Shown in pieces: positions 1,516-1,695 of a stretch of 4,189 nucleotides of DNA (within the stretch, counting starts at the first letter, position 1; each line of letters begins with the position of its first letter). The notes beneath the pieces were generated by a model. The model searched no databases and was not told where the DNA came from. It worked only from the letters and a program-made list of their open reading frames with translations. The stretch is taken from IMG/VR virus record IMGVR_UViG_2681813225_000018. One strand, 5' to 3'. Position numbers and translations under genes: made by a program. Source of the DNA: a virus (taxonomy: Duplodnaviria > Heunggongvirae > Uroviricota > Caudoviricetes).

Positions 1516-1538
1516 ATCGATCGACAAAAACGATCGAT
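1516..1538. promoter_or_regulatory. Inverted repeat ATCGATCG-N7-CGATCGAT carrying two Dam GATC sites; candidate operator or methylation-sensitive site upstream of com
   Basis: Perfect 8-bp inverted repeat arms at 1516-1523 and 1531-1538 around ACAAAAA. GATC at 1519-1522 and 1532-1535. Lies 45-67 bp upstream of the com ATG on the - strand. Confidence 0.45.
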
Positions 1539-1645
1539 TCGATTTGTTTAATTGATACAACAAATAGATTTAAAAGTCATCAACAATGATTCAGGGCGGT
1601 GATTATTTACTTAAAGAAACGAAGAGTTAGGTGGTGAAAACGATC

Positions 1646-1663
1646 ATAAAATGATCATTTTAT
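1646..1663. promoter_or_regulatory. 18-bp perfect palindrome ATAAAATGATCATTTTAT centred on a GATC site; candidate dimeric regulator binding site
   Basis: Exact reverse-complement symmetry across 1646-1663 with GATC at 1653-1656. A further GATC sits at 1642-1645. Abuts a TTGACT hexamer at 1663-1668. Confidence 0.4.
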
Positions 1664-1690
1664 TGACTTTTTATACAGTGAAGGTAGGAT
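1663..1690 (+). promoter_or_regulatory. Possible sigma70-like promoter reading rightward toward the zinc-ribbon gene
   Basis: -35-like TTGACT (1663-1668), 16-bp spacer, -10-like TAGGAT (1685-1690), with a GATC overlapping the -10 (1688-1691). The hexamers are imperfect; this is a weak call by eye. Confidence 0.25.
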
Positions 1691-1695
1691 CGCGC

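Follow-up and report, generated by a model that had tools for sequence, protein, structure and literature searches.

Does a dense group of Dam sites upstream of com and mom in a Mu-like prophage form one methylation switch of the Mu mom type, or do the sites belong to more than one element? The question is raised by IMG/VR virus record IMGVR_UViG_2681813225_000018, a stretch of 4,189 bp which in its full length is called the window here. Five GATC sites lie upstream of com (1271-1471, minus strand, 66 aa, Zn_ribbon_Com, PF10122, E = 2e-12) and mom (580-1317, minus strand, 245 aa, Mom family, PF25680, E = 6e-77), the latter overlapping the end of com. An original prediction, made by reading the DNA, held that all five form a switch analogous to that of Mu mom in a divergent control region shared with a zinc-ribbon gene. 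Matches to complete genomes identify the window as the right end of an Sp18-type Mu-like E. coli prophage inside a lambdoid J gene, and the five GATCs are two separate things, a proximal pair (1519/1532) and a distal trio (1642/1653/1688). The proximal pair is probably the Sp18-type version of the Dam-methylation-sensitive OxyR operator of Mu com-mom, with the distal trio belonging to a neighbouring plus-strand promoter.

The positions originally given for the GATC sites, 1519, 1532, 1642, 1653 and 1688, are correct, and five sites do fall within 176 bp; the eight GATCs elsewhere in the window correspond to about one per 500 bp rather than the one per 400 bp that had been stated. The two palindromes that had been described are likewise both exact. 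The first, ATCGATCG-N7-CGATCGAT at 1516-1538, is part of the palindrome AATCGATCG-N7-CGATCGATT at 1515-1539, in which the 9-nt arms (1515-1523 and 1531-1539) are 100% complementary and GATC 1519-1522 and GATC 1532-1535 are found 13 bp apart. The second is the 18-bp palindrome ATAAAATGATCATTTTAT at 1646-1663 with GATC 1653 at its centre, and the distal sites 1642 and 1653 are also located within 11-bp direct repeats, AAAACGATCAT and AAAATGATCAT. Of 5000 window shuffles that preserved dinucleotides, 135 had at least five GATCs in some 176-bp span (P ~0.03). The intergenic region from com to the zinc-ribbon open reading frame (ORF), 1472-1885, holds six GATCs where 1.9 are expected, and six or more were reached in 31 of 5000 shuffles. 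None of the other 4-bp palindromes was comparably enriched in 1472-1885 with the exception of TCGA, whose enrichment is due to its derivation from the same ATCGATCG words. The GATC clustering by itself is only moderately unusual.

On the minus strand the proximal element reads tATCaattaaacaaatcgaatcGATCgtttttgtcGATCgatt, and its counterparts are GATCgaatcaattaaatcGATCggtaatacaGATCgatt in Mu and GATCaatatctattttatcGATCgtttatatcGATCgata in agn43. Over a longer stretch in com sense, the window has tATCaattaaacaaatcgaatcGATCgtttttgtcGATCgattgc, the Mu mom control region GATCgaatcaattaaatcGATCggtaatacaGATCgattatgc and the E. coli agn43 operator GATCaatatctattttatcGATCgtttatatcGATCgataag. The 23-mer ATCGATCG-N7-CGATCGAT is identical to the agn43 operator core in 21 of 23 positions. 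When the window, Mu, agn43 and the regions upstream of com in four other genera were aligned with MAFFT, they shared GATC columns, the proximal pair being aligned with GATC II/III of Mu. The GATC-bearing OxyR half-sites of P22 gtr, GATCGgtaacaaCGATC and GATCGcttgtatCGATC, have the core GATCG-N7-CGATC too; the window palindrome is a carrier of this shared core, which occurs once in the 41-kb prophage against 0.08 occurrences expected. Each 13-bp GATC pair in gtr is contained within one OxyR dimer half-site, and Dam methylation abolishes binding (PMC2909390). The palindrome at 1515-1539 reads as one putative half-site of this Dam-sensitive kind.

OxyR sites were scored as matches at the 20 specified positions of the tetramer consensus ATAGnTnnnAnCTAT-N7-ATAGnTnnnAnCTAT, on which count the validated sites of Mu and agn43 reach 13/20 and 14/20, respectively. 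The best full tetramer match of the window in the Mu/agn43 register, at 1520-1556 on the minus strand, scores 13/20, and its upstream half-site has TATC (1557-1554) where relatives carry the first GATC. A second, overlapping match at 1551-1587 on the minus strand scores 14/20 and has no GATC; the centre of its half-site 1551-1565 is 31 bp away from that of the GATC half-site, compared to 32 bp in gtr. The second, adjacent half-site scores 6-7/10, and the agn43-type combination of a core with a neighbouring half-site is present in the window. Seven matches in the 4189-bp window reach 12/20 or more, and six of these fall within 1511-1587 (P = 0.0015, intergenic shuffles). From these identities and scores, together with the location and conservation described below, we infer OxyR binding and its dependence on methylation. 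We would class the proximal element as a new member of the OxyR/Dam operators already known, with what appears to be modest architectural variation.

The Mu mom operator has three GATCs and is bound by OxyR only when unmethylated, according to the passages of PMC4461284 and PMC2909390 that report Bolker & Kahmann 1989 and Hattman 1982. The window resembles Mu in the com-mom genes, the right-end location, the alignable ATCAATTAAA...ATCGATCG-N7/8-GATCGATT and the 13/20 score. Whereas the GATCs of Mu are spaced by ~18 and then 13-14 bp, the window has two, and the position of the first is occupied by TATC at a distance of 22 bp rather than 18. The last GATC is found 51 nt from the com ATG here; the distance is 78 nt in Mu and ranges from 76 to 93 nt in the Mu-like 'long' class. 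The Mu operator is located upstream of the C site, whereas the window is without an ATAACC-type C site and its operator probably lies over the promoter. With agn43 (flu) the window shares, in addition to the core, an AT-rich second half-site upstream. It differs in that a third GATC is found 19 bp upstream in agn43, whose site begins at the transcription start, the isrC annotation (agn43 5′ end) beginning at the first GATC; this position relative to the start is matched in the window only under the alternative promoter ATGACT-17-TATCAA considered below. P22/Salmonella gtr is alike in its 13-bp GATC pair in one OxyR half-site and a second half-site 31-32 bp upstream. In gtr, however, a second GATC-bearing half-site 64 bp upstream gives two alternative OxyR sites and true phase variation, whereas the window has one GATC-bearing OxyR-like half-site and its distal pair lies 122 bp away with 11-bp spacing. 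As aligned, the proximal element is lacking two Mu-specific features, the three GATCs and the position upstream of a C site, as well as the two-site feature of gtr.

Conservation was assessed in 21 loci, Mu and 20 loci from different genera that were selected by Mom protein similarity, the motif playing no part in the choice. In 11 of these 21 loci the interval 30-150 bp ahead of com or mom contained a GATC pair spaced 13 or 14 bp, compared with three such pairs in 118.6 kb elsewhere. The GATC density in this interval was 14.6/kb versus 3.6/kb elsewhere (Poisson p = 3e-12). Among the viral stretches with the exact 23-mer pattern, com was located ~45 nt downstream in 30 of 59. The 17-mer is 94-100% conserved in relatives with flanks of 48-64% identity; L033, L091 and L084 (Com identity 74-76%) have kept the GATCs and their spacing although the flanks are down to 44-64% identity, the pair being present also in L091, which was retrieved with a different probe. 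Around the pair, identity to the window was 95-100% in E. coli AST198 and 79-100% in JE86. That the clustering is a functionless by-product of AT-rich intergenic DNA, which a window-wide scan statistic of only P ~0.03 might suggest, is very hard to believe of a pair that is conserved across genera at this level, is near-identical to validated operators and has its core once in 41 kb.

The original prediction had noted no strong minus-strand sigma70 promoter upstream of com, and we agree: no minus-strand sigma-70-like site of at least 9/12 was found between com and the hairpin at 1750-1779, the sole minus-strand match being 1855-1826, upstream of this terminator. The favoured candidate (1497-1527, minus strand) combines a -35 of TCGATC (1524-1519) or TTGTCG (1527-1522) with a -10 of CATCAA (1502-1497) and a predicted start near 1490, which would place the GATCs at ~-45 and -32; we lean towards this model. 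In the same positions AST198 has TCGATC-16-TATCAT or TTGTCG-19-TATCAT, the best candidate in 300 bp, and -10-like hexamers occur directly downstream of the pair in L084, L033 and L004 (TATCAT with an upstream TG, TATACT and TAGATT). This geometry is essentially the one mapped in gtr, where the GATCs are at -46/-33 and the promoter is TCGATC-17-TACACT (PMC2909390), although the predicted -35 overlap relies on weak hexamers. Weak hexamers also make up the alternative candidate, ATGACT (1580-1575)-17-TATCAA (1557-1552) at 1552-1580 on the minus strand, whose start near 1545 we consider a tentative second choice. It would bring the palindrome to +6 to +30 and the operator to -11 to +25 in an agn43-like manner, and the block is conserved in AST198 and JE86. 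As a third possibility, com transcription could begin upstream of 1595 and give a long structured leader. OxyR at 1520-1556 would be placed to repress under every one of these start models.

In the proposed mechanism, one OxyR dimer would occupy ATCG-N7-CGAT with one GATC per arm and a second dimer the AT-rich half-site just upstream, at 1542-1556 or 1551-1565. Host OxyR would occupy the site as long as the DNA is unmethylated, turning com-mom off; full Dam methylation at both GATCs would exclude OxyR and permit transcription. The operator would cover the -35 and the spacer of the com promoter as in P22 gtr, whereas in Mu it is found upstream of the C-activator site, and given this overlap repression would be by promoter occlusion.

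The palindrome might instead work as a nucleic-acid structure, either as a plus-strand terminator against transcription from the host or lambdoid side or as a com-leader hairpin that masks the ribosome-binding site together with pairing of 1595-1573 with 1507-1485. A scan does call a terminator-like site on the plus strand, 1515-1539, with CGATTTGTTT following it, and the minus-strand RNA of 1600-1466 shows a good fold (z = -3.6) in which part of the Shine-Dalgarno region is paired. Self-complementary ATCGAT copies, however, pair with each other by construction, and what relatives keep is the GATCs and their spacing, not the T-run or the long-range helix. The covariation term of the alignment fold was unfavourable (+1.2), the long helix is absent from the consensus structure, and in Mu, agn43 and gtr this core has been proven to be bound by protein, all of which makes the structural explanation quite improbable. 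A conserved RNA structure in a long com leader, which showed a good single-sequence fold and no covariation support in the alignment fold, was rejected as the primary explanation. The segments 1485-1507 and 1573-1595 have a 23-nt imperfect complementarity (78%) that would pair the com Shine-Dalgarno region (AGGAGG, 1487-1482, minus strand) in transcripts starting above 1595, and this complementarity is not conserved in JE86, L033 and L091. No Rfam family matched within the window.

The lack of a strong minus-strand promoter upstream of com had been taken to fit an activator-dependent promoter, a proposal which was not upheld. The prophage has one Mor/C-family gene, located at L025 28403-28828, and the lys and protease promoters of the prophage share CCGCAAArCCyGCC-N16-TAyGCT (L025 28385-28398 and 20457-20470, minus strand), which is probably the binding site and core promoter of this single Mor/C-family activator. 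No copy of the late-promoter 14-mer with up to 3 mismatches was found on the minus strand upstream of com, no ATAACC-type C-activator box follows the operator in the window, and the alignment shows that the ~27-bp segment holding the C site in Mu and the closest analogues is missing here. Because both the C-box segment and the late motif are missing, an activator-dependent com promoter is without positive support. As a candidate late-activator site, CACCGCCCTGAA (1599-1588) has a 10-mer in common with the protease promoter, but its spacing to any -10 differs; it was further ruled out by being polymorphic (G to T) in Sakai, AST198 and L001. A more far-reaching version, in which the Sp18-type operator no longer depends on an activator and has shifted onto the promoter as in gtr, Mom hypermodification is ON in a lysogen subpopulation through the OxyR/Dam state only, and the adjoining insert is a second, undescribed epigenetically tuned module that perhaps feeds back on com-mom, appears to us a long shot.

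For the distal trio the evidence points elsewhere. No OxyR-consensus match of at least 11/20 was found in the distal region. AST198 diverges completely upstream of ~1606 and JE86 upstream of ~1585; both share the com-proximal 115-135 bp with the window and both are without the distal GATCs. On these alignments the trio is part of a lineage-specific insert. The best scan match near the cluster is a plus-strand sigma-70-like promoter at 1663-1691, TTGACT (1663-1668)-16-TAGGAT (1685-1690) followed by C, and GATC 1688-1691 overlaps the 3′ edge of its -10. L033 and L091 (com 76% identical) have TTGACT-16-TAAGAT(C), with hexamers, spacing and GATC kept and the spacer diverged; they have also kept GATC 1653 and lost both GATC 1642 and the 18-bp palindrome. 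The Sp18 variants L032, L036 and L039 have lost GATC 1688 and kept TAGGAT. The distal GATC pair in its direct repeats and palindrome (1637-1663) is centred ~-42.5 from the plus-strand start, which is predicted near 1697. This promoter would read away from com toward the zinc-ribbon ORF, and a Dam effect at the trio, with one GATC in the -10 and the others near -44/-55, would fall on the plus-strand promoter and not on com-mom; any such effect is proposed with low confidence. The distal palindrome had no convincing match by eye to the consensus sequences of Fur, FNR, CRP and the pap GATC box.

The IS10 transposase promoter is a Dam-sensitive promoter with a GATC in the -10, and GATC 1688 in TAGGAT(C), like its equivalent in TAAGAT(C) of L033 and L091, has the same placement. 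The likeness is one of sequence, and some Sp18 variants differ in having no GATC 1688. Both the IS10 transposase promoter and SeqA-bound sites have GATC arrangements of this sort, and the pairs, in which the GATCs are about one helical turn apart, together with the GATC that overlaps a -10 could be taken as SeqA or hemimethylation sensors that link com-mom or the divergent promoter to the replication fork in transpositional replication, independently of OxyR. We find this unlikely, as the proximal match to validated OxyR sites extends well past the GATCs and the GATC in the -10 is the very one that L032, L036 and L039 do without while the hexamer TAGGAT persists.

A single switch of the pap or gtr type, in which a regulator sits on either the distal or the proximal pair and com-mom is heritably ON or OFF, would make use of all five GATCs. 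Both gtr and pap employ two GATC-bearing sites (PMC2909390). The window has two GATC pairs, one with 11-bp and one with 13-bp spacing, which are separated by ~122 bp; either pair is set in a repeat or palindrome, and both are invariant in the Sp18 lineage. The distance of 122 bp fits neither gtr (64 bp) nor pap, whose two GATC boxes are 102 bp apart (PMC2909390); the distal-proximal distances in the window are 110-134 bp, pap being compared on spacing only. Moreover, the distal pair scores below 11/20 for OxyR and is missing in AST198 and JE86 despite the same com block, and L033 and L091 keep one distal GATC and no palindrome. A two-site switch is accordingly given little credence. The original prediction of a methylation switch like that of Mu mom is supported for the proximal palindrome, a close relative of the Mu operator by sequence, position and family conservation, and fails for the five GATCs as one switch, the distal three being lineage-specific, below 11/20 of the OxyR consensus and arranged around a conserved plus-strand promoter; judged by these comparisons, the Mu analogy is right for two of the five. 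The region may be called a control region of com-mom but is divergent only loosely, since the zinc-ribbon ORF lies 195 bp past the cluster and beyond a minus-strand terminator.

Several observations weigh against the proximal pair as the OxyR/Dam operator of com-mom. Only two GATCs are present, the third position reading TATC. A 14/20 OxyR score is attained by 4% of shuffles, and AT-rich spacers score well by composition because the OxyR consensus is itself AT-rich. The -10 candidate of the window, CATCAA, is poor, and a rough sigma-70 position weight matrix scan yields other candidates and misses the known Mu Pmom; the placement of the com promoter is weak for this reason, and the scan was therefore used comparatively only. 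With no activator site in evidence, the silence of the harmful mom in a dam+ lysogen would call for some other explanation, perhaps an activator site that escaped recognition or a start at another position. All Sp18-lineage sequences have the distal pair unchanged, but they are >92% identical to each other, which leaves some room for a role of the distal pair in com-mom control. In the literature no paper specific to Sp18 com-mom regulation was found, nor anything specific on undermethylated GATCs in Mu-like prophages.

A proximal OxyR/Dam operator would extend the Dam/OxyR control logic of Mu mom to Sp18-type Mu-like prophages. The mechanism is textbook and no new kind of mechanism is revealed, but GATCG-N7-CGATC emerges as a compact element common to the OxyR/Dam switches of Mu mom, agn43 and gtr and to those of additional phage settings. 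The prediction also becomes sharper, in that for com-mom only 1519/1532 should matter. The missing activator site leads to the question of what silences a toxic DNA-modification gene in Sp18 lysogens.

GATCG-N7-CGATC with a third GATC 19 bp off, as in agn43, recurs in unrelated viral contigs (L051 605-627 and L078 1007-1029; also L038, L057, L073, L076, L080 and L086). In L051 and L078 the element has a divergent gene for a phage Dam-like adenine methyltransferase on one side and an apparent lipopolysaccharide glycosyltransferase gene on the other, both as judged by eye from translations. These recurrent elements are candidate OxyR/Dam switches.

Bases 1-451 of the window match the 3′ part of lambdoid host-specificity (J) genes, and from ~447-452 on, where the junction between the Mu-like right end and J is located, the sequence matches the right end of E. 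coli Mu-like prophages of the type of Sp18 of O157:H7 Sakai with 99-100% identity. Of 5426 complete E. coli genomes 233 carry the prophage segment, and many of these are O157 or other Shiga toxin-producing E. coli. Other strains have this prophage end at different sites, among them a tail chaperone gene, sorM, pspG and rhsD, and TTTGATAC-type repeats near the phage end (~470-540) are probably bound by the transposase. The phage reads on the minus strand of the window, and in this sense the order is DUF6645 (2613 onward), DUF1378 (2376-2555), DUF826 (2095-2340), the plus-strand zinc-ribbon ORF, the terminator, com, mom and the phage end. Both com and mom are intact and make up the last operon ahead of the right end, the same as in Mu, and this Mu-like gene order with Com and Mom ORFs at the right end gives the operator its Mu-type position. 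E. coli AST198 (L028, 294-1500) has com and the same upstream GATC palindrome, followed by a DNA cytosine methyltransferase that replaces mom. On this arrangement AST198 is a module swap within the same control cassette, and swaps that pair Com with an adenine methyltransferase have been described (PMC3299994).

The lineage-specific insert contains further features downstream of the plus-strand promoter. A (GTAGTAT)x3 tandem repeat at 1696-1716 (plus strand), present in 1 to 3 copies among strains, is located at the predicted 5′ end of the plus transcript. The hairpin with T-run at 1750-1779 is a minus-strand intrinsic terminator with four stem variants showing compensating changes (RNA fold z = -4.3); it is predicted to shield the com control region from upstream minus-strand transcription, and in the plus-strand reading the hairpin is without a T-run. 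The likely target of the plus-strand promoter is the zinc-ribbon ORF at 1886-2056 (plus strand, 56 aa, CPAC...CPAC), whose relatives form 4 protein clusters only, all from E. coli Sp18-type phages, with no Pfam family above the cut-off. A 154-aa ORF annotated as ECs_4996 (1586-2056), which would span the distal cluster, was rejected as a gene, being open in Sakai only, called frameshifted elsewhere, disrupted by the variation of the 7-bp repeat and interrupted by stops in the window. It is treated as an annotation artefact of which only the 56-aa C-terminal ORF is plausible, and the variable copy number of the heptamer helps explain the PGAP call of a 'frameshifted hypothetical protein' over 1586-2056. 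The conserved minus-strand promoter TTTACA-18-TAGGAT (1855-1826) followed by the terminator 1779-1750 is predicted to give a ~75-nt RNA from 1819 to about 1745, fully antisense to the 5′ untranslated region of the zinc-ribbon plus-strand transcript. This untranslated and antisense segment (1741-1855) is much better conserved than the zinc-ribbon ORF in L033 and L091, and the promoter/antisense layout resembles that of a small gene controlled by a cis-antisense RNA.

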